This document shows, piece after piece, positions 1-28,108 of a stretch of DNA of 28,108 nt. The notes below the pieces were generated by a model. The model did no database searches and was not told the origin of the DNA. It saw only the letters and a list, made by a program, of their open reading frames with translations. Within the stretch, counting starts at the first letter, position 1, and every line of letters begins with the position of its first letter. Position numbers and translations under genes: made by a program. Source of the DNA: a virus (Duplodnaviria > Heunggongvirae > Uroviricota > Caudoviricetes); IMG/VR virus record IMGVR_UViG_2534682170_000012, one strand, 5' to 3'.

Positions 1-1002
1 TTACCCTCTATTGTCAAAAGGGTTTAATTCAACAGCAGCCTCTAAATGACCCGGAGCAAAATGCGCATAACGCATAGTCATTTTTATATCGCTATGCCCC
101 AGTATTTTTTGCAACACAAGAATATTTCCGCCCCGCATCATAAAATGACTAGCAAACGTGTGACGTAGCACATGAGTTAATTGCCCATCAGGGAGCTCTA
201 TCTTCGCTCTCTTAATTGCAGCGTCAAAAGCCTCATAACATGGTGAAAATAGCGCTCCTCGTTTTTTAGGAAGCATAGCCTGCAATTGAGGTGAAATCGG
301 TACAGTGCGGTTCTTCTTTCCTTTAGTTTTAACAAATGTGATTCGACCGGGCAGTACTTGAGATTGCTTTAATCCTTCTGCTTCACTCCACCGAGCACCA
401 GTCGCAAGCCCAATACGGACAACAACCCCCAAATCTTTATTCCGTGACTCATCACACGCAATCAAAAGGCGTTCAATCTCATCTACATACAGAAACGCCA
501 GCTCCTTTTCTTCCTCACGAAACTTGCGAATTCCAGTCAGGGGGTTTTCACCAGACCACTCCCCAAGGCGCTTCAGTTCGGCAAAAACAGCATGTAGATA
601 TGACTGCTCGCGATTAACGGTTGCTTCACTAAGTTTTTTCTTCCCCTTGGGATTCCATTCTCCTGATAGCCTTCTTTCCCGATAAGTAGCAAACATATTT
701 TTGTCAAACTGAGAAGCAAATGGATCTCCCAGCCTAGAACAAATCGCCTCAAGTTTGACTTTGCGCTCTGCACCAGAGGACAAGGTTTTGCCGTACATCT
801 CAAACCAACGAGCAATCAACTCAGAAAGACGAGGACCAGAACCATCTTGAAACTCGTCTCCAACTCTACTATTCATTAAACGGCGCTCATAAGAGAGCGC
901 CTCACTTTTTGTCGCAAACTGTTTACGAATGCGTTTTCCCGATGCTCCGTAGGGATAACATTCGCAAAGCCATTTACCTGATGGAATCTTACGAACCGAC
1001 AT
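1..1002 (-). CDS. int: Tyrosine site-specific integrase, P2/186 family
   Basis: 333 aa ORF with stop codon at positions 1-3. C-terminal catalytic region HVLRHTFASHFMMRGGNILVLQKILGHSDIKMTMRYAHF is typical of tyrosine recombinases (R..H..R..Y). N-terminus resembles P2-type integrases. Confidence 0.9.
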   Translation of the reverse strand: MSVRKIPSGKWLCECYPYGASGKRIRKQFATKSEALSYERRLMNSRVGDEFQDGSGPRLSELIARWFEMYGKTLSSGAERKVKLEAICSRLGDPFASQFDKNMFATYRERRLSGEWNPKGKKKLSEATVNREQSYLHAVFAELKRLGEWSGENPLTGIRKFREEEKELAFLYVDEIERLLIACDESRNKDLGVVVRIGLATGARWSEAEGLKQSQVLPGRITFVKTKGKKNRTVPISPQLQAMLPKKRGALFSPCYEAFDAAIKRAKIELPDGQLTHVLRHTFASHFMMRGGNILVLQKILGHSDIKMTMRYAHFAPGHLEAAVELNPFDNRG

Positions 1003-1007
1003 TTTTG

Positions 1008-1355
1008 TTACTTATCACATAAATCAAATGCAGCCTTAGTGACGTCCCCCAGATTCTTTTTTAACCCAGGGGCGGCATCATTATCTAGCCAAAATGGATT
1101 ATTGTTATCTAACGGTAACGCACCAAATGTTTTACCTTTTATTCGAGCCAAACCTGTAAGCGCATATAACTTATTATCGTCAAAATTCATCACATAAGGA
1201 TTACCATCAAGACACTGCAATTGAACCTCATCTGTATTAAATGGCCATACTCCATTGAAACTCTCACGTTCAATAGTTTTAAAAGGCATTGCGACGGCGG
1301 AAAAAGAAAACATAGATAAAAAAGCAACTAATAGTTGAACCTTTTTTACTTTCAT
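1008..1355 (-). CDS. Small secreted protein of unknown function (signal peptide, two Cys), lysogeny-operon cargo
   Basis: 115 aa; N-terminal MKVKKVQLLVAFLSMFSFSAVA looks like a Sec signal peptide. Sits between the repressor-side genes and int, 5 nt from the int start. Function unknown. Confidence 0.5.
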   Translation of the reverse strand: MKVKKVQLLVAFLSMFSFSAVAMPFKTIERESFNGVWPFNTDEVQLQCLDGNPYVMNFDDNKLYALTGLARIKGKTFGALPLDNNNPFWLDNDAAPGLKKNLGDVTKAAFDLCDK

Positions 1356-1384
1356 GTCATTGCCTCAATTTAGCTCAAGTAAGA

Positions 1385-2035
1385 TTACAAATTAAAAAAC
1401 ATCCTAGAAATGGCTCCGCCTACCAAAACCCCTACGCAGATAAAGAATATTATTTCTTTTGGATAAAATCGGATTAATTCTGAAGCACGAAGGCGGACTT
1501 CTGGTAAGGTCGAATTCTCTGTGTGGCTTGATACCGATTGTTGCTCTAACCACGACAATGCAGACTGTAACTGAGAACGAGTAAGATCGTTTAAACGTCC
1601 TGTACCGAAATTGATATGGCAATACCGCAGAAGTTTTTGTCGAAGTCCACAGTCTTCACTGTTACGTAATAATAAACTTACAAGAGTCTTACAGGCATCA
1701 TGATCTTTACATCGCTCAAGCATTGCATGCAGAAAACTCTCCGCTGTTTTATATTGATTTATTGTCATATCATCAATACCAGCTACACCAATCTCCGCAT
1801 GTACTTTTTGCCAAATAATAAACGCTTCAGTATTGCTAGCTTCTGCAATAGCAGCAACCAAGCTATTTAGCTCCTTACGCTGTGCCTTAAGCAAAGGGCG
1901 AGCGTCATCATCATTATTCGAAGGGATTGCGATATTGACGGTATGAGAACCATCATATCGCTCTATCTGAATATTCTTTTCGTGAAAATCACGCCCAGCA
2001 ACGCGATTGTTTGAACCGTTTGAGTTGACGGCCAT
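1385..2035 (-). CDS. C-terminally membrane-anchored protein of unknown function, lysogeny-operon cargo
   Basis: 216 aa; the only hydrophobic stretch is at the extreme C-terminus (IIFFICVGVLVGGAI). GGAGGGG RBS upstream of the ATG. N-terminal NNRVAGRDFHE motif repeats the repressor C-terminus. Confidence 0.5.
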   Translation of the reverse strand: MAVNSNGSNNRVAGRDFHEKNIQIERYDGSHTVNIAIPSNNDDDARPLLKAQRKELNSLVAAIAEASNTEAFIIWQKVHAEIGVAGIDDMTINQYKTAESFLHAMLERCKDHDACKTLVSLLLRNSEDCGLRQKLLRYCHINFGTGRLNDLTRSQLQSALSWLEQQSVSSHTENSTLPEVRLRASELIRFYPKEIIFFICVGVLVGGAISRMFFNL

Positions 2036-2050
2036 GTCCCCTCCCTACTA

Positions 2051-2455
2051 TCACCTACCCTTAGTTTCGTTATAGTCACGACCAGCGATACGGTTATTAC
2101 CACCAGAAATATTTAACTCACGCCCTGATGGCTGAGTTTCCTTTTCACTGCCCGCACTTTTTAAAGCCCCGATCACCGCGTTTTTTACATCTAACGAAGC
2201 TGCTCGAAAGCGAGTAATCAACTCCTGCTCATCATCGTTATAAGTTTCAGGTGAGTGAATTCCCAACACAACATACTGAACATCAAGGCCAAAACGAGAC
2301 AGCGCTGCCAAATACGCAGCATCAGGAAAGCTATCTCCTTTCTCATATCTAAGCTGAGTTAGCTTTTTGACTCCACCAATTTCGCTCATAGCAACTTGAC
2401 TAAGCCCCAATCTTTCCCTTTCCTCACGCAACCGCTGACCAATATCATTTTTCAT
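2051..2455 (-). CDS. HTH (XRE-type) transcriptional repressor, candidate immunity repressor (P2 C / 186 CI functional analogue)
   Basis: 134 aa; N-terminal IGQRLREERERLGLSQVAMSEIGGVKKLTQLRYEKG fits an XRE helix-turn-helix. First gene of the leftward operon that ends with int, divergent from the early operon. Confidence 0.7.
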   Translation of the reverse strand: MKNDIGQRLREERERLGLSQVAMSEIGGVKKLTQLRYEKGDSFPDAAYLAALSRFGLDVQYVVLGIHSPETYNDDEQELITRFRAASLDVKNAVIGALKSAGSEKETQPSGRELNISGGNNRIAGRDYNETKGR

Positions 2456-2464
2456 ACAAAAACC

Positions 2465-2493
2465 TTGACAGGTATCTTTTTTGATACCAAAAT
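2465..2493 (+). promoter_or_regulatory. Candidate rightward early promoter with operator palindrome (lysis-lysogeny switch region)
   Basis: TTGACA at 2465-2470, a 17-bp spacer, then CAAAAT at 2488-2493. A perfect inverted repeat GGTATC-N6-GATACC at 2471-2488 fills the spacer. Lies in the 75-bp divergent intergenic region. Confidence 0.35.
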
Positions 2494-2530
2494 GATTTCA
2501 CGAGCTATTAGATGATCACAATATACCACT

Positions 2531-2737
2531 ATGAAACAAGTTCTTCACGATACCAGATCCCGCATTCCGCGTAACACCGCCACAGGTCCAAGACTGGCAC
2601 TTCGGCTGTCCCTCGAAGAGCGAGCCGTCATTGATGAAATGGCAGCTAAAGAACAACGCTCATCCTCTAACATGGCGCGCATGATCTTCCTTCGCGGCCT
2701 AGAGCTAACCCAGAAAGAACAAAACAAATCTTCCTGA
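2531..2737 (+). CDS. Small ribbon-helix-helix-like early regulator (possible Cox/Apl analogue)
   Basis: 68 aa; LALRLSLEERAVIDEMAAKEQRSSSNMARMIFLRGL has a beta-strand then two helices, as in Arc/MetJ/CopG proteins. First gene of the rightward operon. Confidence 0.4.
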   Translation: MKQVLHDTRSRIPRNTATGPRLALRLSLEERAVIDEMAAKEQRSSSNMARMIFLRGLELTQKEQNKSS

Positions 2738-2753
2738 TCAGGAGGCTAGTGGG

Positions 2754-2957
2754 ATGTCAGGTATAACCATCAATATCAATGTGAATGCCCCCTATGTATC
2801 CCTGCAGAAATATGCAGAGATAACAGGTATCCCTCTTAATACATGCAAAAAGATGTTGGCTGACGGTCGAATTATTATCCGCCCCAAACGTGCCAAAATG
2901 GAAAAGCCTGAAGTAAACCTTGTGGCGATGTTAAAAGACGCTTTGGCTAACAGCTAA
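2754..2957 (+). CDS. Small putative DNA-binding protein (excisionase/HTH-like)
   Basis: 67 aa; VSLQKYAEITGIPLNTCKKMLADGRI resembles excisionase/AlpA-type HTH; GGAGG RBS upstream. Confidence 0.35.
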   Translation: MSGITININVNAPYVSLQKYAEITGIPLNTCKKMLADGRIIIRPKRAKMEKPEVNLVAMLKDALANS

Positions 2958-2978
2958 AACAATGAACAGAGCATCATC

Positions 2979-3329
2979 ATGAAAAAACACGCTAATAATC
3001 CATACTCCAAATTTCGTAATGGCGTAGAACGCCATATACACCACGTCGCTACCAGTGCATCACGTAGTAACAATCGCTATAACCTGAACGAGACGCACGC
3101 AACACCAGATGGGCACGCTGTAAAACAAATCGGCGAACACACCTGGCTGATTGAGAAAGCTGGAATAGTGGTTCACAGATGCTCACGCAATCCGTTTACC
3201 GGAAACCGCATTTTTGCATTAAGCAACGGCGATAATCAGTTCGGGCAGGATTTTACATTGTACGAAGCACTGCGCACAGTCGATCGTTTGCTTCGCGGGC
3301 AAAGTTTTATTAAACAGGCTGATTTATAA
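2979..3329 (+). CDS. Hypothetical early protein
   Basis: 116 aa ORF in the early operon, tightly spaced with neighbours; no motif recognised. Confidence 0.4.
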   Translation: MKKHANNPYSKFRNGVERHIHHVATSASRSNNRYNLNETHATPDGHAVKQIGEHTWLIEKAGIVVHRCSRNPFTGNRIFALSNGDNQFGQDFTLYEALRTVDRLLRGQSFIKQADL

Positions 3330-3339
3330 CAGGTGCTTT

Positions 3340-3618
3340 ATGACTAAAGACCATGCACAAGGTGTATTTATCCGCTTTATTGATTTTCGCGGTGAACTGT
3401 TATTACGCGCATCAGCTATTGACGGAGTAGTTCCATCTGAAAAAAATGCAGCTACCTACGTTTATCTGAACGGTACGCGCCTGACAGTAGAACTTCCGTA
3501 CCAGACCGTTCGCGAAATAATTAACGAAGCTGAAAAAGCTCGTCAGGTTAATGGCGATGAACCCTATATCGAAATTATCTGCATGGATTCAGAAGCTGAA
3601 ATTCAGAAAGCAGATTAA
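3340..3618 (+). CDS. Hypothetical early protein
   Basis: 92 aa ORF in the early operon; no motif recognised. Confidence 0.4.
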   Translation: MTKDHAQGVFIRFIDFRGELLLRASAIDGVVPSEKNAATYVYLNGTRLTVELPYQTVREIINEAEKARQVNGDEPYIEIICMDSEAEIQKAD

Positions 3619-4596: not shown

Positions 4597-4986
4597 ATGA
4601 TTGACGCTCATGACTTCACAAGATGGGTGCGCACACAGGACACCCGTCTGGCTCCCGTTCTTCAGGGATTATTTGATCTCTACATCCGTAGTCGTGACAA
4701 CAGAGCACGCACTACAAAACCGGAGAATGCAGACACCCTTTATTTCACAGTAGACGACTGCTACCGCGTGGACTTAACACCACACGGGCTGGCGTTGCGC
4801 TGCCTGACACCGCATGGCGAATCACTGCTGGCGTATTACGACTCCCCGACCTCCGTATTTGCGGCAATGCTGGCGCATCACACTGCTGGCGGGTGTGCCT
4901 CGCTGAGTGAATACACCGCTGAATTTAACCGCCTTTCCACCCTCTTCTCGCAGGAGTGGCAGCGCGTGACGGGATACCAGCCATGA
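4597..4986 (+). CDS. Hypothetical early protein immediately upstream of, and coupled to, the replication gene
   Basis: 129 aa ORF; its stop overlaps the gpA start (ATGA at 4983-4986). Confidence 0.45.
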   Translation: MIDAHDFTRWVRTQDTRLAPVLQGLFDLYIRSRDNRARTTKPENADTLYFTVDDCYRVDLTPHGLALRCLTPHGESLLAYYDSPTSVFAAMLAHHTAGGCASLSEYTAEFNRLSTLFSQEWQRVTGYQP

Positions 4987-7748
4987 GTGAGTTTGCATGG
5001 AGCTGGAATGAACCACGGCCAGCCATTGATCCGGACAGATTTACGGAGCGCAGGCAGGAAACTGAAACCGAGCTGCAACGCGCCATCCGTTACTACCTTG
5101 AGGCGGACAAAAAGGCCCGTAAAGAACAGGAAGCGAAGGAGGAAGCCTTTTTCGCACAATCCACCGTGGGTAAAAAACTCATGGCATCCCTTGAGGAAGC
5201 CGGACAGCGTGAAAAGCTGGCACAAAGCATCATCAGCAAGCGTCAGGCAACAGAACAAGACCCGGTGGCCCGTGCTTTTGCCACACTGAAGGTGCTTCCC
5301 GTTTATCTGCGTGAACCTCTGAGCCGCCACCTCTCTTTCCTGCGCAAAAAACAGGAATCCGATCGTCAGAAAGGCAAAAAGAGCTGGCAGGCTGAACGCT
5401 ACGCGCGCGGAACCCTGCGCAAAATATTCGTACGTCTGGACCGCACCGACAGCCGTTGGCTGACACCGGGTTATCGGTCCCTTGCCGGACGTGAACGCCT
5501 GGACGATTTGCTTTCCCTGCCGCAACTCAACAAACACCAGATACAGACGCTGGCCACCATGACGGCGGCGATGTTCAGCAGCACCTTCGAAAAACTCTGC
5601 GATGGTTTTGGCGCGACCGATGGCGAGCTGACCATGGATGTAACGCTGAAGGCGTATCAGATGCTGGCCCGCATGGCGTTACACTTGCACGCCATGCCTC
5701 CGCATTATGACGCACTGACAACAGACAAAGACCGGAGGAACGAACCGGACACAGAACTGCTGCCGGGCGCAATCCTTCGCCTGACCTGTGCGGAATGGTG
5801 GAAACGCAAACTGTGGCTGTTACGTTGCGAGTGGAGAGAAGAACAACTCCGCGCCGCCTGTCTGGTTTCCAGAAAAACATCGCCCTATTTGAGCCAGGAC
5901 GCGTTAAGCGAGTTTCGCGCACAGCGCGAGAAAACACGCGATTTCCTGAAAAGTTTCATGCTGGAAAACGAAGACGGGTTCACGATTGATCTCGAGACGG
6001 TGTATTACGCGGGAGTAAGTAACCCGGTTCACCGTAAGGCAGAAATGATGGCCACCATGAAGGGGCTGGAACTTCTGGCCGAAGCCCGTGGCGACAAAGC
6101 GGTGTTTCTGACTGTCACCTGCCCGTCAAAATACCACGCCACAACAGAGAACGGTCATCCGAATCCCAAATGGAACGGGGCCACCATGCGCGACTCCAGC
6201 GATTACCTGGTTAACACGTTTTTTGCGGCGGTCCGCAAAAAACTGAACCGCGACGGTCTTCGCTGGTATGGCATCCGCACGGTGGAGCCTCACCATGACG
6301 GCACCGTGCACTGGCATATGATGGTCTTTGCTCATCCGGAAGAAATCGACAGCATCGTGGCCATCACCCGCGATATTGCCATTCAGGAAGACCGCCACGA
6401 GCTGGGCAATGATATTACTCCGCGCTTTAAGGCGGAGTATGTCGACGGCTCAAAAGGCACACCAACCAGCTATATCGCGACCTACATCGGAAAGAACCTG
6501 GACAGCCGCGCCGTGGATGGCATCGACCCGAAAACGGGCAAGCCACGCGTTGACCACGAAACCGGAAAATCAATGGCCGAGAGTGTGGAGCGCGCCATCG
6601 GCTGGGCGCGCCTTCATCGGGTCCGCCAGTTCCAGTTCTTTGGCATCCCCTCCCGTCAGGTGTGGCGTGAACTGCGCCGCCTTGCCAGCCAGATGGCACG
6701 CAACCCGGAAGGCCCGCAACGACTGAAAGATGACGCAATGGATGCGGTACTCGCTGCCGCCGATGCCGGGTGTTTTGCCACCTACATTGAAAAACAGGGC
6801 GGCGTACTTGTTCCACGCAAAGACTACCTGATTCGCACCGCCTACGACCTCGCAGATGAGCTGAATGATTACGGCGAACAGAGCGTACAGATTTACGGGA
6901 TCTGGTCACCACTCATCGGGGAATCCTCCCGTGTGTGCACGCATCCGGATAACTGGAAACTGGTAAGACGTAAACCGGAAACGGAAGACAGCGCCCGCGA
7001 AAATGGTTTTGACCTTCAGGGCGGCCCTGCCGCCCCTTGGACTCGTGGCAATAACTGTCCCCGTGTACAGGAAACGGACAACAACGGGACAGAACAGCCG
7101 GAAGAACGGCCAGCACCGTGGCCGCGGCTTCCTGAAGGCGTTGACGTGAATGAATGGATGCGCTCACTGAAACGGCACGAACGCCGGGCACTGATGCGTT
7201 CGCTGCGTGACAAACAGGCAAAAAACAGCAGTGATGAAATGCAGAACTGGACACAGAGCCGCAAACAGCCACAGCCTTTGCCTGATAACCACGAGTTACT
7301 CGCTAAAGAATGGCGGGAGTCTGCTGAATCTCTCGGCCTGCATATCGGTGAACAGCAGATGCAGCACCTGTTACGAGGCGGCAGTCTGTACGTTGGCGGC
7401 AGCATCATTGCACCGCAGGGATTTGAAATTGTACGCAAACAGGATACCCGCCCGGACAGCCGAATCACGCAGCTCTGGCAACGCCTGAGTCGTAATCACG
7501 GCGTAAGCAGCACGGAGATCCGCCATAACCCGGTCGCCAGCTATCTGGAACAACTAGAGGCATCAGACCCTGAAGCCGCCGCACGCCTGGCATCCACACT
7601 TCAGCAAGACCAGAACACCATGAAAACACCCGTTACCGTACTTTCTGACATGCTGCGCGCCATCCGCGACGCAGAGCACGCACAGAGAATCAGTGAAACC
7701 ACTAAACATGCTCGCAAAAAAATCAGTTTATTGCATCGAACACGATAG
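4983..7748 (+). CDS. A: Rolling-circle replication initiation endonuclease, P2 gpA family
   Basis: VEPHHDGTVHWHMMVF (HUH-type motif) and paired tyrosines YIATYIGKN (Tyr codons at 6471-6473 and 6483-6485) match the remembered P2 gpA active region. Start taken as the ATG at 4983 rather than the ORF-track start at 4956. Confidence 0.88.
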   Translation: MSEFAWSWNEPRPAIDPDRFTERRQETETELQRAIRYYLEADKKARKEQEAKEEAFFAQSTVGKKLMASLEEAGQREKLAQSIISKRQATEQDPVARAFATLKVLPVYLREPLSRHLSFLRKKQESDRQKGKKSWQAERYARGTLRKIFVRLDRTDSRWLTPGYRSLAGRERLDDLLSLPQLNKHQIQTLATMTAAMFSSTFEKLCDGFGATDGELTMDVTLKAYQMLARMALHLHAMPPHYDALTTDKDRRNEPDTELLPGAILRLTCAEWWKRKLWLLRCEWREEQLRAACLVSRKTSPYLSQDALSEFRAQREKTRDFLKSFMLENEDGFTIDLETVYYAGVSNPVHRKAEMMATMKGLELLAEARGDKAVFLTVTCPSKYHATTENGHPNPKWNGATMRDSSDYLVNTFFAAVRKKLNRDGLRWYGIRTVEPHHDGTVHWHMMVFAHPEEIDSIVAITRDIAIQEDRHELGNDITPRFKAEYVDGSKGTPTSYIATYIGKNLDSRAVDGIDPKTGKPRVDHETGKSMAESVERAIGWARLHRVRQFQFFGIPSRQVWRELRRLASQMARNPEGPQRLKDDAMDAVLAAADAGCFATYIEKQGGVLVPRKDYLIRTAYDLADELNDYGEQSVQIYGIWSPLIGESSRVCTHPDNWKLVRRKPETEDSARENGFDLQGGPAAPWTRGNNCPRVQETDNNGTEQPEERPAPWPRLPEGVDVNEWMRSLKRHERRALMRSLRDKQAKNSSDEMQNWTQSRKQPQPLPDNHELLAKEWRESAESLGLHIGEQQMQHLLRGGSLYVGGSIIAPQGFEIVRKQDTRPDSRITQLWQRLSRNHGVSSTEIRHNPVASYLEQLEASDPEAAARLASTLQQDQNTMKTPVTVLSDMLRAIRDAEHAQRISETTKHARKKISLLHRTR

Positions 7749-7793: not shown

Positions 7794-8603
7794 TCAACCT
7801 ATCTTCTTATGAAGTAAAATTAATTTCTGTATTAATTTGGAATGAAACATTGATATATCAGAAATTCTTATTTCATTAGGCGAGTCTATATGATTGGAAA
7901 CTTCTTCCTCCAAGGAGTCACAAATACTTTCTAGATTTTCAATATCTGCATTTAATTCTGGAAAACTATTAAACAAATATAATGAATCCCGTAACTCTCC
8001 TAGTTTTGGTAAAAGAGTATTACTGAATACACTAAGAAACTCCTCTTCTGATAATGCCATGGAGTTTTTAAAACTTTGCACAACATCGAATGCCAACCCA
8101 TTAATTTTAGGCATAATTACTTCTCTTACCCAATACCCTTCATTAATAGCTTCTTTACGTTCTTTTCTATGTTGAACACAAGGAATAACAAAGGATGAAA
8201 CTAAAGCAAATAAAGAGATGCCAATAGAAATCCACTCTGGACCATTTTCCGGAACCTTTACAATATTATATATATCATAGGAATTTGGAACATCTTTGAA
8301 ATAATTAGCAAATAAATCTTTTTTGTTATCCCTTGCCAGAGATAACTTATGAAAGGTGTCGTTTGCCTTTTCACAAAACATCAAGCCATCATTCGGGTTT
8401 CCGGATAACAAAAACGGTGATGATATACCACTAAGTCCTGAATCGGAAATATAAAAAGGCGTGTTTGGATAAAGTGATTCATTACATTCAATGTTTTCTT
8501 TATTGGAAAAATCTGTCACAGAGCAAGCTGCGGGGAATATAAAAAAAATGACAGACAGCGCTGTCATTTTGATTTGAAAAATATTTTTAAAAGAAGGGAA
8601 CAT
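7794..8603 (-). CDS. Cargo gene 3: membrane protein with signal-peptide/lipobox-like N-terminus and one internal TM helix
   Basis: 269 aa, AT-rich. N-terminal hydrophobic segment ends in PAAC; internal hydrophobic helix WISIGISLFALVSSFVIPCV. Start 8603 overlaps gene 2; an alternative ATG is at 8565-8567. Confidence 0.5.
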   Translation of the reverse strand: MFPSFKNIFQIKMTALSVIFFIFPAACSVTDFSNKENIECNESLYPNTPFYISDSGLSGISSPFLLSGNPNDGLMFCEKANDTFHKLSLARDNKKDLFANYFKDVPNSYDIYNIVKVPENGPEWISIGISLFALVSSFVIPCVQHRKERKEAINEGYWVREVIMPKINGLAFDVVQSFKNSMALSEEEFLSVFSNTLLPKLGELRDSLYLFNSFPELNADIENLESICDSLEEEVSNHIDSPNEIRISDISMFHSKLIQKLILLHKKIG

Positions 8604-8931
8604 TTTTATGTAAGCCTCTCCTTACAGCTCTATCTAATTCAGAAAGCATACCTTCTTTATATTCACGACCATCAAGTACAGTGCGACTATAAAATTCGCT
8701 AGGCGAAGAAAATTTCGGCAAAACCGTTTCAAGCATACCTAGAAAGTATGAGCTTGATACAACAATTCCCTTGGGGATCAATAGATATAATCTATCATTA
8801 CTGGTTGTGCAAAATTTCCCTATATTAAAGTAATCATAGGCCTGGCGCCCATTAGAACGTCCAGCAAAAAGTTTCTTGTTACTATCTTTTACTAACTTAT
8901 TGAAATCTATGGTGATGTCAGCCATTTTCAT
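8587..8931 (-). CDS. Cargo gene 2: small STAS-like protein (anti-sigma-factor-antagonist-like)
   Basis: 114 aa; Ser-rich VVSSSYFLG (8737-8763) resembles the phospho-acceptor motif of SpoIIAA/RsbV-type STAS domains, and the size matches. GAGGA RBS; starts 10 nt after the gene 1 stop. Confidence 0.45.
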   Translation of the reverse strand: MKMADITIDFNKLVKDSNKKLFAGRSNGRQAYDYFNIGKFCTTSNDRLYLLIPKGIVVSSSYFLGMLETVLPKFSSPSEFYSRTVLDGREYKEGMLSELDRAVRRGLHKNVPFF

Positions 8932-8941
8932 GTACCTGTCC

Positions 8942-10321
8942 TCAAGTTCGCTGGGTGGCGTTTTCTGGTAGAGGAAAACGAATATTGATCATAACTCCAG
9001 GAAATCGAGCATCCTTCATACGCTTAAGATAGTTGCGATCCGGTTCAGATTCAAGCCCTACATCATTAAAAGGGTAAGTAAAAATGTCACTTTCCTCGTC
9101 ATTAACCAACCTTTGCTTTAATTTATATGATCCATCAAAGTTAATATGAGTACTACCAGATATTAAAGTCATTTTTATCCCACCTTTAATATCTCTTCCC
9201 ATTTTTTTAAGATTATCATGCATATCTTGAAATAACTTCAATAATTCAATTGTTCCGGTGCCAGAACTGTCAGTTTCTTTCTCGTTTTTACAACTCACCC
9301 GCCCTTGCAAGGCCGCTACTGTTGTTAATCCTTCCTTAAACATACCCTTTTTCTTAATATGCTTATTTATGTATGGATTAACTTGTTGACTTAATGAAAA
9401 ATGATCCTCAGGTAAATTATCAAAAGTTTCGCTGATAGTTTTCCCAAAATTGAAAACAGCCAACTCACATATGGGGTTTCGTACGTTATTATTAACAAAA
9501 CCTCTCAAATACCAGCGTGGGCGTTGCTCTAACCCACAATGCCGCTCCGCATTATCAAGGAGTTCCCCCATGCAGGAAGTTAAATGCTTTTCTGCCTCAT
9601 GTACAAGTTTTAAATTATGATCATTTAAGCATTCGTTTATGTATGCGGTAAATTTTTCAGCAGTGACATTTTTTCTGTCATGGGCAAAGGCAGAAGCATT
9701 CTCCTTTCCGATACTATCAGCAGAGAAGATTCGTTTCTTCGGATTCGCTTTTTTCGATGCTTCAGTAGAGTCCAGAACTTTACCTGGTGCAGCATTACTA
9801 ATCTCTTTTACAAGCCCGACATCCCTGATAATTTCAAGATACTGTTCATCTTTAGGGTAGATACCATTAATCTGAATCATCGTATCTTTGAAATTTATAT
9901 TACTTTGCCTTGCTGCTGTAAGAGCAACACCTAATAGACACTCAAGACCAAGACAGTGTTTTTTGTTTTTCTTGTAATCAAAAATATATGATTTCCATTT
10001 ACCTCTTGCAATTAATTTTGTGGCTGCACTAATAAATAGCAGAGATTTCTCTGGATTGTCATATAAGTCAAAATATTTAGGTATTAATATCTTCTCTGCG
10101 TCACGACGAAGAATTGATGAGTCATACTCTTTTATAATCGATATATTTTCAATGAACGTAGCGACTTGGTTTTGGACAGGAGTTGTTTCATCGGAAAAAC
10201 GAAGACTACCATTTTTCTCTTGCGCAGGCTTTTTTTTCTTAGCTCTCTCAACGCTACGAAGAAATCGCAACCATCCACGTAAAAAGGTTCTTTTAGAATC
10301 TTCTTTATTGATTTTTTTCAT
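8942..10321 (-). CDS. Cargo gene 1: large protein with GHKL/anti-sigma-kinase-like ATPase motifs
   Basis: ORF-track frame 8942-10417 begins at a TTG; the first ATG is at 10319-10321 (MKKINKED...). ELLDNAERHCG (9539-9565) resembles the N-box of SpoIIAB/RsbW-type Bergerat ATPases; Gly-rich DSSGTGT (9239-9271) lies downstream. Strongly AT-rich. Confidence 0.5.
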   Translation of the reverse strand: MKKINKEDSKRTFLRGWLRFLRSVERAKKKKPAQEKNGSLRFSDETTPVQNQVATFIENISIIKEYDSSILRRDAEKILIPKYFDLYDNPEKSLLFISAATKLIARGKWKSYIFDYKKNKKHCLGLECLLGVALTAARQSNINFKDTMIQINGIYPKDEQYLEIIRDVGLVKEISNAAPGKVLDSTEASKKANPKKRIFSADSIGKENASAFAHDRKNVTAEKFTAYINECLNDHNLKLVHEAEKHLTSCMGELLDNAERHCGLEQRPRWYLRGFVNNNVRNPICELAVFNFGKTISETFDNLPEDHFSLSQQVNPYINKHIKKKGMFKEGLTTVAALQGRVSCKNEKETDSSGTGTIELLKLFQDMHDNLKKMGRDIKGGIKMTLISGSTHINFDGSYKLKQRLVNDEESDIFTYPFNDVGLESEPDRNYLKRMKDARFPGVMINIRFPLPENATQRT

Positions 10322-10400
10322 TTCCAAATGTTCCTGCAAAGTTAACGTAGCCCACAAGGCGCTAAGTATACTTTCTGCTATATTTTTTTCACTATACAAA

Positions 10401-10428
10401 TGCACAATAGTGCACAAATTTGCACAAT
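10401..10428. repeat. Three direct TGCACAA repeats at 10-bp phasing upstream of the cargo operon; a fourth copy at 10493-10499
   Basis: TGCACAA at 10401, 10411 and 10421, read directly. Possible operator or packaging-recognition element. Confidence 0.3.
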
Positions 10429-22060: not shown

Positions 22061-24226
22061 ATGAGTACCACAACACGAAAATTTAAAACCGTTATCACCG
22101 ATACGGGTGCAAAAAAATTAGCTCAGGCAGCCGCGCCAGATGGTAAGCCTGTCCGCCTGACTCATATGGCCGTGGGCGACGGTGGCGGCGCGTTGCCCAC
22201 ACCAGACAGTAAGCAGACCCGTCTGGTGCATGAGGTGTGGCGACACACTGTTAATCGCGTCATCCTGGACGCAACACATCAGAACCGCATTATTGCGGAG
22301 CTGGTTATTCCTCCTGAAACGGGCGGATTCTGGATCCGGGAAATTGGTGTATTTGATGAGCACGGCGATTTAATCGCGGTGGGCAATACTGCCGAAAGTT
22401 ACAAACCAACCGTTGCCGAAGGGTCCGGACGTGCACAAACATTTCGCACTATTCTGACCGTATCCAGCACTGCCACCGTGGCGCTTACCGTGGATAACAC
22501 CATGGTGATGGCCACAGTGGATTACGTGGATGACAAACTGAAAGAGCATGAACAGTCACGACGTCACCCGGACGCCTCGCTGACCGCAAAAGGCTTTGTT
22601 CAACTCAGTAGCGCCACTAACAGCGATTCTGAAACGCTGGCTGCAACGCCGAAAGCGGTTAAGGCCGCGTATGACCTGGCTAACGGAAAATATACCGCTC
22701 AGGACGCCACGACGGCACGAAAAGGGATAGTCCAGCTCAGCAGTGCAACCAACAGCACGTCTGAAACGCTGGCAGCGACACCAAAAGCGGTTAAGGCGGT
22801 AATGGATGAAACGAACAAGAAAGCCCCATTAAACAGCCCGGCACTGACCGGAACGCCAACAACACCAACTGCACAACAGGGAACGAATAATACCCAAATC
22901 GCAAGCACGGCTTTTGTTATGGCCGCGATTGCCGCACTTGTAGACTCTTCACCTGACGCACTGAACACGCTGAACGAGCTGGCGGCGGCGCTGGGCAACG
23001 ACCCGAATTTTGCGACCACCATGACTAACGCGCTTGCGGGTAAGCAACCGAAAGATGCCACCCTGACGGCGCTGGCCGGGCTTGCTACTGCGGCAGACAG
23101 GTTTCCGTATTTTACGGGGAATGATGTTGCCAGTCTGGCAACCCTGACAGAAGTCGGGCGGGATATTCTTGCGAAATCGACCGTTGCCGCTGTTATCGAA
23201 TACCTCGGTTTACAGGAAACGGTAAACAGGGCTGGTAACGCCGTGCAAAAAAATGGCGATACCTTGTCCGGTGGGCTTACTTTTGAAAATGACTCAATCC
23301 TTGCCTGGATTCGAAATACTGACTGGGCGAAGATTGGATTTAAAAATGATGCCGATGGTGACACTGATTCATACATGTGGTTTGAAACAGGCGACAACGG
23401 CAATGAATATTTCAAATGGAGAAGCAAACAAAGCACCACAACAAAAGACCTGATGAATCTTAAATGGGATGCTTTGTCTGTCCTTGTTAAAGCCCTTTTC
23501 AGCAGTGAAGTAAAAATATCGACAGTCAATGCACTAAGGATATTTAATTCATCTTTTGGTGCTATTTTTCGCCGTTCTGAAGAATGTCTTCATATCATCC
23601 CTACCCGAGAAAATGAGGGGGAAAATGGCGATATAGGGCCACTACGCCCCTTTACGCTTAATCTCAGAACTGGTCGCATAACTATGGGGCATGGTCTGGA
23701 TGTTACAGGAGATATATTTGCAAACCGTTTTGCAATTAACAGTAGTACCGGCATGTGGATTCATATGCGTGACCAGAATGTTATTTTGGGACGCAATGCG
23801 GTATCCACCGATGGTGCACAGGCATTACTTCGTCAGGACCATGCTGATCGCAAATTTATGATTGGTGGGCTGGGAAATAAGCAATTTGGCATCTACATGA
23901 TTAATAACTCAAGGACAGCTAATGGCACCGATGGTCAGGCGTACATGGATAATAACGGGAACTGGCTTTGCGGCTCGCAAGTTATTCCCGGCAACTATGG
24001 CAATTTTGATTCCAGATATGTGAAAGATGTTCGACTTGGTTCACAGAAATATTATGGAGTGAACAACTGGCAAACATGGAATTTCCAGTGCCCGTCAGGT
24101 CATGTATTGTCTGGTATTAATGTTCAGGATACAGGGTCCAACTCTGCCGATAATATAGCGGGCGTTTATTGCAGACCCGTTCAAAAGTATATAAATGGCA
24201 CCTGGTATAATATAGCGAGCGTTTAA
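22061..24226 (+). CDS. H: Tail fibre protein, P2 gpH family, with variable C-terminal receptor-binding segment
   Basis: The N-terminal two-thirds is near-identical in long stretches to remembered P2 gpH ([23 protein letters not shown] repeats, [30 protein letters not shown]). The C-terminal third diverges and ends [11 protein letters not shown]. Confidence 0.9.
23193..23218. repeat. gix/hix-like recombination site, left, inside the tail-fibre gene at the constant/variable junction
   Basis: TTATCGAATACCTCGGTTTACAGGAA matches the reverse complement of the right site at 24 of 26 positions. Confidence 0.7.
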
Positions 24227-24227
24227 T

Positions 24228-24755
24228 ATGATGCACTTAAAGAACATAAAAGCGGGTAATGCTAAAACACTGGAACAGTATGAGTTAACAAAGAAGCACG
24301 GAGTCATCTGGCTTTACTCTGAGGACGAAAAAAACTGGTATGAGGAAGTGAAAAACTTTCAGCCAGACACCATAAAGATTGTTTACGATAAAAATCAGAT
24401 TATAGTCGCTATCACCAGAGATGCTTCAACGCTTAATCCTGAAGGTTTTAGCGTTGTTGAGGTTCCTGATATTACCTCCAACCGACGTGCTGACGACTCA
24501 GGTAAATGGATGTTTAAGGATGGTGCTGTGGTTAAACGGATTTATACGACAGATGAGCAGCAACAACAGGCAGAATCACAAAAGGCCGCGTTACTTTCCG
24601 AAGCAGAAAGCGTTATTCAGCCACTGGAACGCGCCGTCAGGCTGAATATGGCGACGGATGAGGAACGCGCACGACTGGAGTCATGGGAACGCTACAGTGT
24701 TCTGGTCAGCCGTGTGGATACGGCAAATCCTGAATGGCCACAAAAGCCTGAATAA
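24228..24755 (+). CDS. G: Tail fibre assembly chaperone (P2 gpG / Tfa family)
   Basis: 175 aa directly after H; N-terminal region matches the inverted paralogue at 24784-25284. Confidence 0.85.
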
Positions 24756-24783: not shown

Positions 24784-25284
24784 TCATTCAGGTTGTTCGG
24801 GAAACGTTACTGGCAGGCTGGAAGTGTCTGTAGATTCGACTTTCTGCGCAAAGAGCATCCACTCTGTTAATTTTTGTTTATTCTCGTCGGAAATGATGCC
24901 CAGCCGTAGCTGTGAGTCCCATAGCTGGGTTTTATCCCTGACGAGCTGTAGCAGGCTTTGCTTTTCATTTTCCGCCTGCTGCCTCTGCTCTTCCTCGGTA
25001 TAAGTTCGCTTTACCACTACGCCATCTTTGAACATCCATTTACCCGAAATGTCAGCACGGCGATTTGCTGTAATATCAGGTAATTCAACGACGCTTGCGC
25101 CTTCCGGATTAATTGCTGAAACATCCTTTTCAATACAAATAATAACGCCGTTATGGCCATAGACCATTTTCAAAGTGTCTGGCTGGAAATTCTTTTGTTC
25201 CTCATACCAGTTTTTTCCATCATCTGAATAAAGCCATTTGATGTTAAATTGCTTTGTTAGCTGGTATTGCTCTTTCGTTCTCAA
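24784..25284 (-). CDS. Alternative tail fibre assembly chaperone (Tfa'), inverted orientation
   Basis: 166 aa; clearly paralogous to G ([31 protein letters not shown]). Confidence 0.8.
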
Positions 25285-25339
25285 AATCGGTGGAGCTGCA
25301 TGACAAAGTCATCGGGCATTATCTGAACATAAAACACTA

Positions 25340-26311
25340 TCAATAAGTTGGAGTCATTACCCCCGCGTTATACCACGTCCCATTAATGCAATACTGAATT
25401 GGCCTTGCCTGAGTTGTATCAATTAATTCATCACGGTTTCCGTTAACTGAACCCGTAACGACATAACCTGACCTGTCAGACCAGCCGGGGCCTTTCCATG
25501 TCTGAACAGATGACAGACCGCCAAGGCGAATACCTGTAATAAACCTTGAGTTACATTCTGCCTGCGTATATGCACCAACATCCCCCGCAGAGGGTTTGCG
25601 TGTTGTGGTGTAAAACTCTGACCAGTTAGCTTCAAAGCCATAACCATCACGCGCTGAACGATAAAAAATACCGCCGTTCCTGTAATTCACGCGGAACTGT
25701 ACAGCAGGGCAACTCCCCGCATTCATATTGAAGTGGAGGATTAATGTCGATGCACCACTGATATCTGCATCATAAACACCGCTATTCCAGTTCCAGCCAA
25801 CAGCTTTATCATTTGCGACCCTGCGTCCTGTTTGCCCTAAAGCAAATGCAGGCTGCTGGTTTTTCGTGTTGTAGTCTCGTCGCCAGCCAGGAGCGTAAGC
25901 ATCACCATGATTAATATAAGTGAATTGAGCGTTAGTAATTCCGCCACCGCTGGACGTGCTCGGCGTAGTAACGCGTATGGTCATTGCGCCGCGAGTGCCA
26001 ATAACTTCCACCACAGCACCTGCAAGACAAATATTTCCGCAACCTGTATCTGTAATAACCTTATTATTTGCATAAGCCCATGAGCCTTTGCACATCCAGT
26101 AAGGATGGTTAAATGCCCCCTGACTCTCCAGCCACGAAATAAATTGCGCAGTTGTCCAGACCTGACTATCGCCACCAATATTCAGCCATGCGCTATATGC
26201 GCGGCAGGCACCAATGTTTTTGGTGAAGGTATCTTTTCCCGGAATATCTGCGCCGTTCTGGTTTTTCTGTAATGCGCCAGAAGCCTGATTTACCGTTTCC
26301 TGTAAACCGAG
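25340..26311 (-). CDS. Alternative tail-fibre C-terminal segment, start-less; would be fused in frame to H after inversion
   Basis: Hand translation of the minus strand from the right gix site gives LGLQETVN, then a novel segment ending [15 protein letters not shown]. The codon just upstream is a stop, so it has no own start. The ORF-track ATG at 26095 is internal. Confidence 0.7.
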
Positions 26312-26322
26312 GTTTTAGATAA
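26297..26322. repeat. gix/hix-like recombination site, right
   Basis: TTCCTGTAAACCGAGGTTTTAGATAA; one mismatch to the Mu gix sequence as I remember it; inverted relative to the left site. Confidence 0.7.
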
Positions 26323-26376
26323 TGGCGGTTTCTGGCCTGCATGGCATGATTTGTGCTTTTGGACGGGAGATTCAGC

Positions 26377-26703
26377 GTGCTGATTGGCTATGTAAGGGTA
26401 TCAACAAATGACCAGAATACAGACCTGCAACGAAACGCTCTTGTTTGTGCAGGATGTGAACAAATATTTGAAGATAAATTAAGCGGAATAAGGACAGGCC
26501 GACCTGGATTAAAACGTGCTTTAAAGCGCCTTCAAAAAGGTGACGCACTGGTTGTCTGGAAACTGGACTGACTGGGTCACTGTATGCGGCATCTTGTCGT
26601 GCTGGTGGTGGAAGCCTGGAAGAAGTATCGGGTGTTGCTGAACCGTGTTAATACAACAACTGCACCGGATATTGAATGGCCAACAGGACCCATTATCGAA
26701 TAG
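26377..26703 (+). pseudogene. Serine DNA invertase (Gin/Hin/Pin/Cin family) pseudogene: premature stop after about 65 codons, decayed downstream part, C-terminal DNA-binding region missing
   Basis: GTG start with GGGAGA RBS; N-terminus LIGYVRVSTNDQNTDLQRNAL...LVVWKLD matches the invertase catalytic domain (Ser in VRVSTNDQ). In-frame TGA at 26569-26571 where the family has Arg. The same frame then reads [14 protein letters not shown], a degenerate version of LGRSMKHLISLVGE, and ends at TAG 26701-26703. Confidence 0.7.
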
Positions 26704-26776: not shown

Positions 26777-28108
26777 TTATTTTGAGTGAGTTATCACCTT
26801 GTTTTTTCCGGTTCTTTTGGCTTGATATAACGCTTTATCGGCATTGACTAACATTTCAGATGGACTGAGATTATTCTCTTTTGAAGTAAAGCAACCAATA
26901 CTGACAGTTATTTTCTCAGGTCCATGCGATAATAATTTTTCCGAGCATTGCTCTTCAATGTTTTTTCTGATTCGCTCTGCAATTGATAGCAAGAGCTTTT
27001 GAGTATTACCTTTAATGATAATACCGAACTCCTCACCGCCTAAGCGCCCTAATATATCCTCTTTCCTGATGGATTTTTTTATTATTCTGGTAACCATTAC
27101 TATGACTTGATCACCCATATGATGCCCCCATTTGTCATTGATGCTTTTGAAATTGTCAATATCTAACATTATTACTGAGAAATCATGGTGTTTTGATATA
27201 TTCTTCAATGAGTCAATAAAGTATCTTCTATTGTATGTATTCGTTAGTGGATCATGAATTGCCATATGATTAGCATGATTTAATTTCCTGAAAACATAAT
27301 ACATGAGTGTTGAAATGATATAAATCATTGATATCAATTCAAGAAATTTTGTCATGTACCATGCAGGATGGGATTTATCAATAAAATACAATAAAATTAG
27401 ATTATTGCATACTGACACTATACTAATAAGTATTATACACAACCATATTTTTGAGTAATTACGTATGCTGATGCATGAGCTGATAAGTAATACAAGCCAA
27501 AATACTGATATTATTTTGGTGTACACGATATTCCACGTCGGCAAATGACGATTCAGCGAGTATTGTATAATATTAAGACTATATTTTATATTGTCACTGC
27601 TTAGATTTTTTGCTACAAACGGAGTAATAAAAAGAATTAATATTGACAAAACAACAATTATTATGTTTCTTTTATCTTCTAAAACACTTTTGTTTTTAAC
27701 ATTGGTGGAATAAACAGCCAGAAAGATTATAGATATAAAGCTGAACTGACGGAATAGATAATATATTGCGATATCATTTGATTTCTGATAGATTGTAGAT
27801 AAATCGTTACCTAACGGAGATAAAGAAATAATAGCCACTTCTAATAAATAATACGTGTTGCTCAAAAACGCGAATGAAAGAATTAAGAGATAACTTTGTC
27901 TCTGATTAGAAACATAGTAAAGCAATAGAAAAATAAAAATCATCAGGTTTATGAAAAAAAGCCCAATAATGAAAACACTATAACTTATTTGTGTTGTTTG
28001 TGTTATGTATATTCCATTATTTGCATGCAGTAACAAAAATATAATAGAGATGCATGAAAATAAAAAGATGAAGATTTTTATTTTTATAGGTACCTGGTTG
28101 ATAATCAT
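26777..28108 (-). CDS. Membrane-bound diguanylate cyclase: multi-pass N-terminal membrane domain plus GGDEF domain (YcdT/DgcT-like architecture)
   Basis: C-terminal GGDEF domain with HDPLTNTYNRRYF, RLGGEEFGIII (GGEEF active-site motif) and DKALYQAKRTGKNKV. N-terminal half is highly hydrophobic and AT-rich. The ORF start codon is the last 3 nt of the window, so the true start may lie beyond it. Confidence 0.8.
   Translation of the reverse strand: MIINQVPIKIKIFIFLFSCISIIFLLLHANNGIYITQTTQISYSVFIIGLFFINLMIFIFLLLYYVSNQRQSYLLILSFAFLSNTYYLLEVAIISLSPLGNDLSTIYQKSNDIAIYYLFRQFSFISIIFLAVYSTNVKNKSVLEDKRNIIIVVLSILILFITPFVAKNLSSDNIKYSLNIIQYSLNRHLPTWNIVYTKIISVFWLVLLISSCISIRNYSKIWLCIILISIVSVCNNLILLYFIDKSHPAWYMTKFLELISMIYIISTLMYYVFRKLNHANHMAIHDPLTNTYNRRYFIDSLKNISKHHDFSVIMLDIDNFKSINDKWGHHMGDQVIVMVTRIIKKSIRKEDILGRLGGEEFGIIIKGNTQKLLLSIAERIRKNIEEQCSEKLLSHGPEKITVSIGCFTSKENNLSPSEMLVNADKALYQAKRTGKNKVITHSK

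Follow-up and report, generated by a model that had tools for sequence, protein, structure and literature searches.

Extra genes between the immunity repressor gene and the integrase gene (int) are already known from P2-like phages. In the P2-like Vibrio phage K139 the annotated lysogenic operon is cI-orf2-glo-int, with the extra genes on the same strand, and Glo, a small periplasmic protein encoded just 5' of int, is involved in phage exclusion (PMC4870250). The Salmonella phage PSP3 has the order cI-orf28-int. The subject of this work is the corresponding region of IMG/VR record IMGVR_UViG_2534682170_000012, a stretch of 28,108 nucleotides (the window) that represents a P2-like prophage (Peduoviridae, Xuanwuvirus-type). 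Two genes are located here between the repressor gene and int, and their products are called ORF216 and ORF115 (open reading frames, ORFs, of 216 and 115 residues). The first-pass annotation of this DNA assumed that in P2 the repressor gene directly adjoins int. Such an arrangement is indeed found in the related phage P88, where a P2-type C stands beside int in place of the repressor and ORF216 module described below, but it does not extend to the P2-like phages PSP3 and K139.

The locus resembles each of these two phages in part. With K139 it shares the same-strand genes between repressor and int; however, K139 has no protein of the Flk_N family, to which ORF216 belongs, and the cI repressor of K139 is longer and of another kind. 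ORF115 is 29% identical to PSP3 orf28 (DUF2511, E 6e-11), which occupies the same position, whereas PSP3 has a 186-type cI and no ORF216. YebY, the member of the DUF2511 family with a solved structure, is periplasmic and contains a disulfide between Cys48 and Cys113, and signal peptides are general among the members of the family (PMC8689200). Genes of the DUF2511 family were also seen by the same authors between a recombinase and a CI-type repressor, a context separate from the AZY operon (PMC8689200). In E. coli, YebY belongs to the copper-linked yobA-yebZ-yebY operon, and this context is absent here.

In ICEBs1 (immR-immA-int) and in phage lambda (cI-rexA-rexB) the repressor gene is followed by that of a protein acting on or with the switch, and in ICEBs1 then by int, within one leftward operon. 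RexB is a membrane protein. ORF216 differs from the proteins of these systems in having neither an HExxH sequence nor a PADLOC match, and the shared terminal motif reported here is missing in those systems. The protein Flk (RflH, 'Fluke') is similar to ORF216 in its Flk_N helical domain, its C-terminal tail anchor and the cytoplasmic location of the bulk of the chain. Flk is reported to hold the flagellar export apparatus in early mode from its tail-anchored position (PMC13344023). Unlike ORF216, it has two tandem domains and is encoded in a chromosomal setting unrelated to phages, and its N-terminus is rich in Pro and Gly and lacks the motif. In the placement of its motif the locus can be compared with Bab/Agp (BASS11), an E. 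coli pair with experimentally tested amyloid signalling (bioRxiv 10.1101/2024.11.07.622273). In both cases the genes are adjacent and prophage-borne, and a short motif is C-terminal in one product and N-terminal in the other; in the present locus the motif also co-varies. However, Bab/Agp consists of a Bell-like pore-former and a TPR-PIN sensor, while a helix-turn-helix (HTH) repressor and a Flk_N protein are combined here. The motif of the enteric loci is shorter and more charged, and the likeness to an amyloid system is one of layout only. No description of a repressor/Flk_N pair was found in the searchable literature.

The shared terminal motif

The C-terminal tail of the repressor and the N-terminus of ORF216 carry matching versions of one short motif (Table 1). 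The repressor chain ends with ...NISGGNNRIAGRDYNETKGR and the ORF216 chain starts with MAVNSNGSNNRVAGRDFHEK... In the six-frame translation of the window the motif is found only twice, at these two termini, and the two copies are separated by ~90 nucleotides. Local alignment of the two termini gives a score of 62, against 20.8 +/- 4.4 for shuffled sequences. Fusion of the two proteins by read-through was ruled out by three consecutive stop codons (TGA TAG TAG) and by the length of the gap, which in some of the other loci is not divisible by three.

The motif ranges in size from 13 to 25 residues. Its sequence is specific to the clade, and it is matched inside each pair. The repressor tails of all enteric loci follow the pattern [IV]SGxGNR[IV]AGRD[YF]NExKK, with the match to the ORF216 N-terminus kept in each, and among 58 ORF216 homologues the residues G7, N10, R11, D16 and E19 are invariant and G14 and R15 nearly so. 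The repressor tails are closed by a basic cluster in all clades (KK, KGKK, KKNK, RRRKTK). In many Flk_N proteins two GRD pseudo-repeats correspond to one in the repressor. For 83 non-redundant pairs the mean local score within a pair is 58 in the enteric and 47.5 in the Pseudomonas loci, compared with ~20 for shuffles, and combinations of repressor and Flk_N proteins across clades score 19-23. The z-scores of the motif pairs are mostly 4-14, with two defective loci at background.

The codons of the motif were compared in 91 unique DNA pairs. Identity is 68% at positions 1 and 2 and just 35% at position 3, and the same codon is used for only 38% of the identical motif residues. Since the first two codon positions are alike and the third is near random, selection acts on the motif at the level of protein. 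Gene conversion as the source of the similarity was ruled out on the same figures, the codons being mostly different.

Conservation of the repressor and ORF216 as a pair

Related loci were collected from genomes and viral contigs with ORF216 as bait. A pair was counted where a single upstream ORF of at least 100 residues ended between -60 and +40 nucleotides from the start of the ORF216 homologue. This was the case in 138 of the 147 related loci screened, with a repressor homologue as the directly preceding gene; a few related loci are disrupted. The loci with a pair come from Escherichia, Klebsiella, Serratia, Erwinia, Hafnia, Arsenophonus, Yersinia-type, Gilliamella, Pectobacterium and Pseudomonas genomes, and the pairing with Flk_N persists where the repressor identity is as low as 34-60%. 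In one Pectobacterium and one Gilliamella locus (L154 and L155) the pair is found away from int, with holin and SLT genes as neighbours. Judged from P88, the repressor/Flk_N module is exchanged as one unit.

An E. coli P2-like repressor served as negative control. Its alignment covers 63% of the query, mainly the HTH part, with 58% identity. This protein has a different C-terminus without the tail motif, and other genes downstream with no Flk_N neighbour. In the profile of distant Flk_N proteins no stretch was conserved enough for scanning the loci, and the P0145 scan gave no matches. ORF216 is the invariant partner of the repressor and shares a co-varying motif with it, and it should for these reasons be regarded as a part of the immunity module and not as a moron.

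Table 1. Positions and sequence features of the repressor, ORF216, ORF115 and adjoining genes of the window, with the motif pairs of other clades.
Feature	Position	Strand	Basis or remark
Immunity repressor, 134 residues	2051..2455	-	Pfam HTH_31 and HTH_3; PHROG transcriptional regulator and repressor families
Repressor tail motif S117-E130, SGGNNRIAGRDYNE, then basic C-terminus TKGR	2066..2107	-	Matches ORF216 N-terminus
ORF216, tail-anchored Flk_N-family protein, 216 residues	1385..2035	-	phrog_5825, E 2e-101
ORF216 N-terminal motif S5-E19, SNGSNNRVAGRDFHE	1979..2023	-	Predicted disordered segment
ORF216 cytoplasmic helical domain, ~residues 46-172	1520..1900	-	One copy of the unit present twice in Flk
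ORF216 C-terminal transmembrane tail anchor, residues 194-216	1388..1456	-	Kyte-Doolittle; predicted helix 192-215 (AlphaFold2)
ORF115, YebY/DUF2511-family protein, predicted to be secreted, 115 residues	1008..1355	-	phrog_2950, E 2e-39
ORF115 signal peptide, residues 1-22, end AVA, no lipobox cysteine	1290..1355	-	Sequence reading MKVKKVQLLVAFLSMFSFSAVA; hydropathy maximum 6-24
P2-type tyrosine integrase, 333 residues	1..1002	-	Pfam Int_N E 5e-32, Phage_integrase E 2.5e-22; last of the leftward lysogenic gene string
Promoter-like site, putative, divergent early operon	2465..2493	+	TTGACA-17-CAAAAT, consensus scan 10/12
Arc-like ribbon-helix-helix protein, divergent early gene	2531-2737	+	phrog_3431, E 1e-28
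Cox-like excisionase/repressor, divergent early gene	2754-2957	+	phrog_575, E 1e-27
Pseudomonas type 1 motif			Repressor FHGxVGQxVAGNxTNKSGVTFNVG; Flk_N FHGxVGQxAxGDINNYGIxIxL
Pseudomonas type 2 motif			Repressor TFxEVGQYIHGSVNQSGLTLNVG; Flk_N FHGxVGQxAxGDINNYGIxIxL
Pectobacterium motif			Repressor QIFNGDISGQFAGNQIINN; Flk_N QEFNGTAQGQFSSRDIINI
Gilliamella motif			Repressor GEGQIAGGNIYT (GQIAGGNIY); Flk_N AEQIAGRDIYNIT (EQIAGRDIY)
Ralstonia motif			Repressor GGSNNVQIGSV; Flk_N GHGNVQIGKV

Predicted structures of the repressor and ORF216

The repressor consists of an HTH domain of the XRE/Cro-C1 type (residues 1-64), two helices (residues 74-102) and a disordered C-terminal tail (residues 104-134). 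In the AlphaFold2 model the predicted local distance difference test score (pLDDT) is above 90 across the HTH domain and below 50 at residues 104-134. Only weak matches of HTH type were obtained for the repressor with PADLOC.

The model of ORF216 contains a disordered segment at residues 1-40 (pLDDT below 50 at residues 1-27), a helical domain at residues 50-172, a variable linker and a C-terminal transmembrane helix. The motif segments of both proteins are thus placed in disordered regions of the predicted monomers, with no beta structure. The 19-residue Kyte-Doolittle maximum of ORF216 is 2.24 at residues 195-213 of 216 and represents the sole hydrophobic window, in agreement with the single C-terminal membrane segment noted in the first-pass annotation. 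ORF216 has no signal peptide, its one transmembrane segment is at the very end of the chain, and it is predicted to be a tail-anchored protein of the inner membrane. The position of the anchor is kept among the homologues and its sequence is variable.

Precomputed assignments of close and distant ORF216 homologues to PF27202 (Pfam name Flk_N) place the protein in this family. The NCBIfam model of Flk (NF007987) aligns with ORF216 residues 38-168 (E 6e-15). The score of 55.4 bits is far from the equivalog cutoff of 353, and the full two-domain architecture of ~330 residues is not present. The single domain copy of ORF216 can be aligned with either half of Flk, and the BLASTP comparison with Flk gives E 2e-08. 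The family is small, with just 89 clusters at E <= 1e-3 among 1.8 billion representatives. Its members are currently labelled 'hypothetical', 'membrane protein' or 'flagella biosynthesis regulator', and the last of these labels is misleading.

A sequence search of PDB chains with ORF216 gave no matches. No model of PADLOC-DB v2 matched ORF216 or ORF115 at E <= 0.1, and no Pfam or NCBIfam match of the ImmA/IrrE type (COG2856) was found for ORF216.

ORF115 and the cargo slot

ORF115 scores 25.9 bits with Pfam DUF2511 (PF10709; cutoff 21) over profile positions 2-87 of 87 and is labelled as a DUF2511 protein in RefSeq. Its alignment with the YebY structure (PDB code 7N0J) has an E-value of 0.0067, and its only cysteines, C48 and C113, align with the two cysteines of that chain. 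ORF115 is probably disulfide-bonded. The N-terminus is signal-peptide-like, which bears out the earlier description of a secreted protein as far as prediction allows. All these features are those of a DUF2511/YebY protein. The CopC and CopD homologues that accompany YebY in the AZY copper operon are not found here, the neighbours of ORF115 being ORF216 and int.

The stretch between the ORF216 homologue and int varies from 320 to 1900 nucleotides in the related loci and reaches 3084 nucleotides in one locus disrupted by an insertion sequence. A DUF2511 gene is located there in the near-identical E. coli type and in three other loci. In other related loci the same place is taken by a ~292-residue protein with BRCT and WYL-like matches, by a ~295-residue TerB-like+BRCT protein that is a homologue of K139 orf2 (32% identity, E 3e-47) with a weak match to PADLOC PDC-S48, by small acidic proteins, by a 242-residue membrane protein or by a three-gene cassette. 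The slot 5' of int is a cargo hotspot. As it holds unrelated genes in related prophages, ORF115 can be considered exchangeable cargo.

In other cases the slot holds two genes side by side, one for a zinc-ribbon-like protein and one for a tail-anchored coiled-coil protein. Downstream of the tail-less repressor P0327 there is also a related ORF of the zinc-ribbon-like kind. Examples of the slot among the related loci L003-L091 are L075:4648-5535, L084:4551-5447 and L080:5654-6503.

Gene layout and other features of the window

The genes are arranged on the minus strand in the order repressor, ORF216, ORF115 and int. The same strand and the tight spacing, which had been pointed out in the first-pass annotation, were confirmed, with gaps of 15 nucleotides between the repressor gene and ORF216, 29 nucleotides between ORF216 and ORF115 and 5 nucleotides between ORF115 and int. 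Sequences similar to a Shine-Dalgarno site precede ORF216 (GGAGG) and ORF115 (GAGG). No terminator-like site was predicted on the minus strand from 2455 to 1. The lone promoter-like match on this strand in that stretch (1108-1080, 9/12) is within chance expectation. From this layout we infer that ORF216 and ORF115 are expressed in the lysogen. The promoter-like site listed for the opposite strand lies within the 75-nucleotide region between the repressor and the early genes.

The GC content is 0.359 for ORF115, 0.406 for ORF216, 0.442 for the repressor gene and 0.447 for int. The region is thus more AT-rich than int, as had been remarked, and this is due mainly to ORF115. The ratios of nonsynonymous to synonymous substitution rates (dN/dS) of ORF115 and ORF216 against diverged homologues are 0.13-0.34. 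By this comparison both appear as real genes under purifying selection. The segment 1008-2035 was found in 511 of 5426 complete E. coli genomes (~9%). In E. coli chromosomes the host gene yecA adjoins the prophage at the int side.

Positions 1-3400 are 96% identical to 'Escherichia phage 520873' (NC_049344). Of 50,697 deposited phage records, just six encode a relative: an E. coli prophage that was extracted computationally, and five records of Ralstonia that are unverified. NC_049344 is the sole E. coli phage record with the module. In NC_049344 (1039-3065) int is divided into two coding sequences, and ORF216 and ORF115 are unannotated and can be recovered only as 3-4 tblastn pieces. These broken genes are probably the result of sequencing frameshifts or of decay of the prophage. 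In a near-identical RefSeq genome the Arc-like ORF is unannotated, and a 45-residue 'hypothetical protein' is called on the minus strand instead.

The replication endonuclease gene (4956-7748) encodes a gpA-like protein of 930 residues from a GTG start. Its true start is uncertain, as the upstream part overlaps a 129-residue ORF (4597-4986) that carries the RefSeq label 'inositol monophosphatase' and has no Pfam match. Three minus-strand ORFs of 269, 114 and 491 residues (7794-10417) follow, between the replication gene and the portal/terminase genes, at the position of the accessory-gene hotspot known from P2. No Pfam or PADLOC match was obtained for any of them. In a near-identical prophage of E. 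coli, the gene that comes first in this place carries a ParM-like annotation.

The tail-fibre genes (22061-24755, plus strand) are followed by an inverted tail-fibre-assembly gene (24784-25284, minus strand), a gp37_C-like fibre fragment (25340-26095, minus strand) and a 72-residue N-terminal fragment of a serine invertase (26353-26571). The section 24784-26571 has the look of an invertible host-range segment in decay. The tail-fibre region is immediately followed by a gene for a 443-residue MASE4-GGDEF diguanylate cyclase (26777-28108, minus strand), which extends up to the window edge. This gene could be prophage cargo at a position of the P2 Z/fun type, or the prophage could be truncated, with the gene marking its edge.

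Discussion

The genomic observations on the pair are well supported, and they allow us to propose a tentative mechanism. Matched, co-evolving terminal peptides on the products of side-by-side genes argue for a direct physical coupling of the repressor and ORF216. The coupling could take place by pairing of the two peptides, or both peptides could compete for one site, for example the helical domain of the Flk_N protein. With ORF216 anchored by its tail, the repressor would by this coupling be brought to, or kept at, the cytoplasmic surface of the membrane. By holding, buffering or releasing the repressor, ORF216 could tune immunity and prophage induction. It would be a co-transcribed and signal-gated modulator with a logic similar to that of ImmR/ImmA or cI-rexAB, and its effect on the repressor might be either stabilising or antagonising. 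ORF115 would be made from the lysogenic transcript and exported by the Sec pathway, and its role in the periplasm is most likely envelope protection, exclusion or lysogenic conversion. For this overall account, an immunity module of repressor and Flk_N protein with ORF115 as exchangeable cargo, we estimate a probability of roughly 0.55.

Several observations weigh against this account. A Pseudomonas sub-clade (L123, 2384-3543) has the repressor and Flk_N pair without a recognisable common motif. The repressor and Flk_N genes of the Ralstonia phage YO027_3 (L093:2459-4033) are convergent, and the Flk_N product has no transmembrane segment. The motif and the anchor are for these two reasons not universal. 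A repressor antagonist that is constitutively co-expressed with its target requires a gate, and none was identified. A Foldseek search of the PDB with ORF216 gave nothing significant, all fold matches of the helical domain being sub-significant. Co-transcription of the genes from the repressor to int is deduced only from the spacing and the absence of predicted signals. Finally, comparison of ORF115 with K139 Glo by BLASTP gave E 12, that is, no homology, and no defence model matched ORF115.

Both exceptional loci have features of their own. In L123 the C-terminal domain of the repressor is different and helical, and the Flk_N protein has an N-terminal extension of 60 residues with no G/N-rich motif; this arrangement may represent an alternative coupling interface. 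In YO027_3 the peptide NVQIG (containing VQIG) is nonetheless present in both the repressor and the Flk_N-like ORF.

A different type of coupling would be templated co-assembly of the terminal peptides, amyloid-like or by beta-augmentation as in Bab/Agp and the HET-s type. Here a membrane or infection signal would cluster ORF216, acting as a membrane-anchored sensor, and its N-terminal motif would nucleate co-assembly with the repressor tail. The repressor would be switched off, with induction as the result, or conversely ORF216 would be activated as a membrane effector of abortive infection. A motif at the C-terminus of one product and at the N-terminus of the next is the very layout by which amyloid signalling motifs have been found. 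The motifs are rich in G, N, Q and V, 13-25 residues long and co-varying, and the doubled GRD pseudo-repeat of many Flk_N proteins also fits. However, the motif of the enteric loci is short, with a high share of charged residues (R, D, E, K). Domains of the Bell/HeLo and NLR/STAND types are absent from both partners, and no beta structure is predicted for the segments, which are disordered in the monomer models. We consider this mechanism unlikely, if slightly less so than those that follow.

The first-pass annotation had proposed that ORF216 and ORF115 are both accessory cargo expressed by the lysogen, for superinfection exclusion, receptor masking or lysogenic conversion. On this reading they would have no role in the switch itself. 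The tight same-strand placement 3' of the repressor gene and the AT-richness relative to int would agree with this, as would a membrane-anchored and a predicted periplasmic product and the precedent of K139 glo. For ORF115 the proposal stands, given the variable slot and the similar position of PSP3 orf28 and K139 glo. It does not hold for ORF216. This protein is never exchanged and is found with the repressor in different genera and types of phage, whereas the content of the adjacent slot varies; the ORF216 motif co-varies with that of the repressor, and PADLOC gives no match for the protein. As an explanation of both genes, cargo is unlikely.

The common peptide could also be a tag for a protease or its adaptor. 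ORF216 at the membrane, for example near FtsH, would compete for recognition as a decoy and so set the half-life of the repressor. Lambda CIII protects CII in a comparable way, as a competitor for FtsH. Both motifs are on termini predicted to be disordered, where degrons are usually found, and the repressor tails are basic-ended in all clades. However, host proteases are conserved, and a tag recognised by the host should then be conserved across clades. The tag observed here diverges by clade and is matched pairwise, and no protease or adaptor gene is located beside the pair. We hold such a decoy to be about as unlikely as cargo for both genes.

It is highly improbable that ORF216 mimics Flk and acts on the flagellar type III export gate, changing motility or blocking flagellotropic phages. 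The homology with Flk and the same tail-anchored topology would favour this, but the score is far below the Flk cutoff, one domain copy is present instead of two, and Flk has no N-terminal motif. The family is, in addition, abundant in prophages of Klebsiella pneumoniae (P0094, for example, is found on 754 contigs), a species that is classically non-flagellated. The link with the repressor would be left unexplained. A flagellar role of ORF216 was ruled out on host range and architecture. A functionless similarity of the motifs, as a remnant of local duplication or gene conversion between segments that are indeed close together, is just as hard to accept, because the similarity persists in every clade despite the changed motif and a tail-less repressor has no such partner.

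What is new here is the repressor/Flk_N module with its matched terminal peptides. P2-type prophages are among the commonest of Enterobacterales, and to our knowledge little is known about the control of their induction, apart from Tum of the 186 type. ORF216 is a candidate for a non-SOS input to the lysis-lysogeny switch that can be recognised by the matched terminal peptide. The signature of a shared terminal motif in adjacent genes is hereby extended from cell-death and defence pairs to transcriptional repressors. The slot between ORF216 and int, once told apart from the fixed regulatory gene, can be mined for diverse candidate defence and conversion genes. If the templated switch, unlikely as it is, proved true, induction would be tied to the state of the envelope or to superinfection in temperate phages, P2-like ones among them, that have no cleavable repressor of the LexA type.

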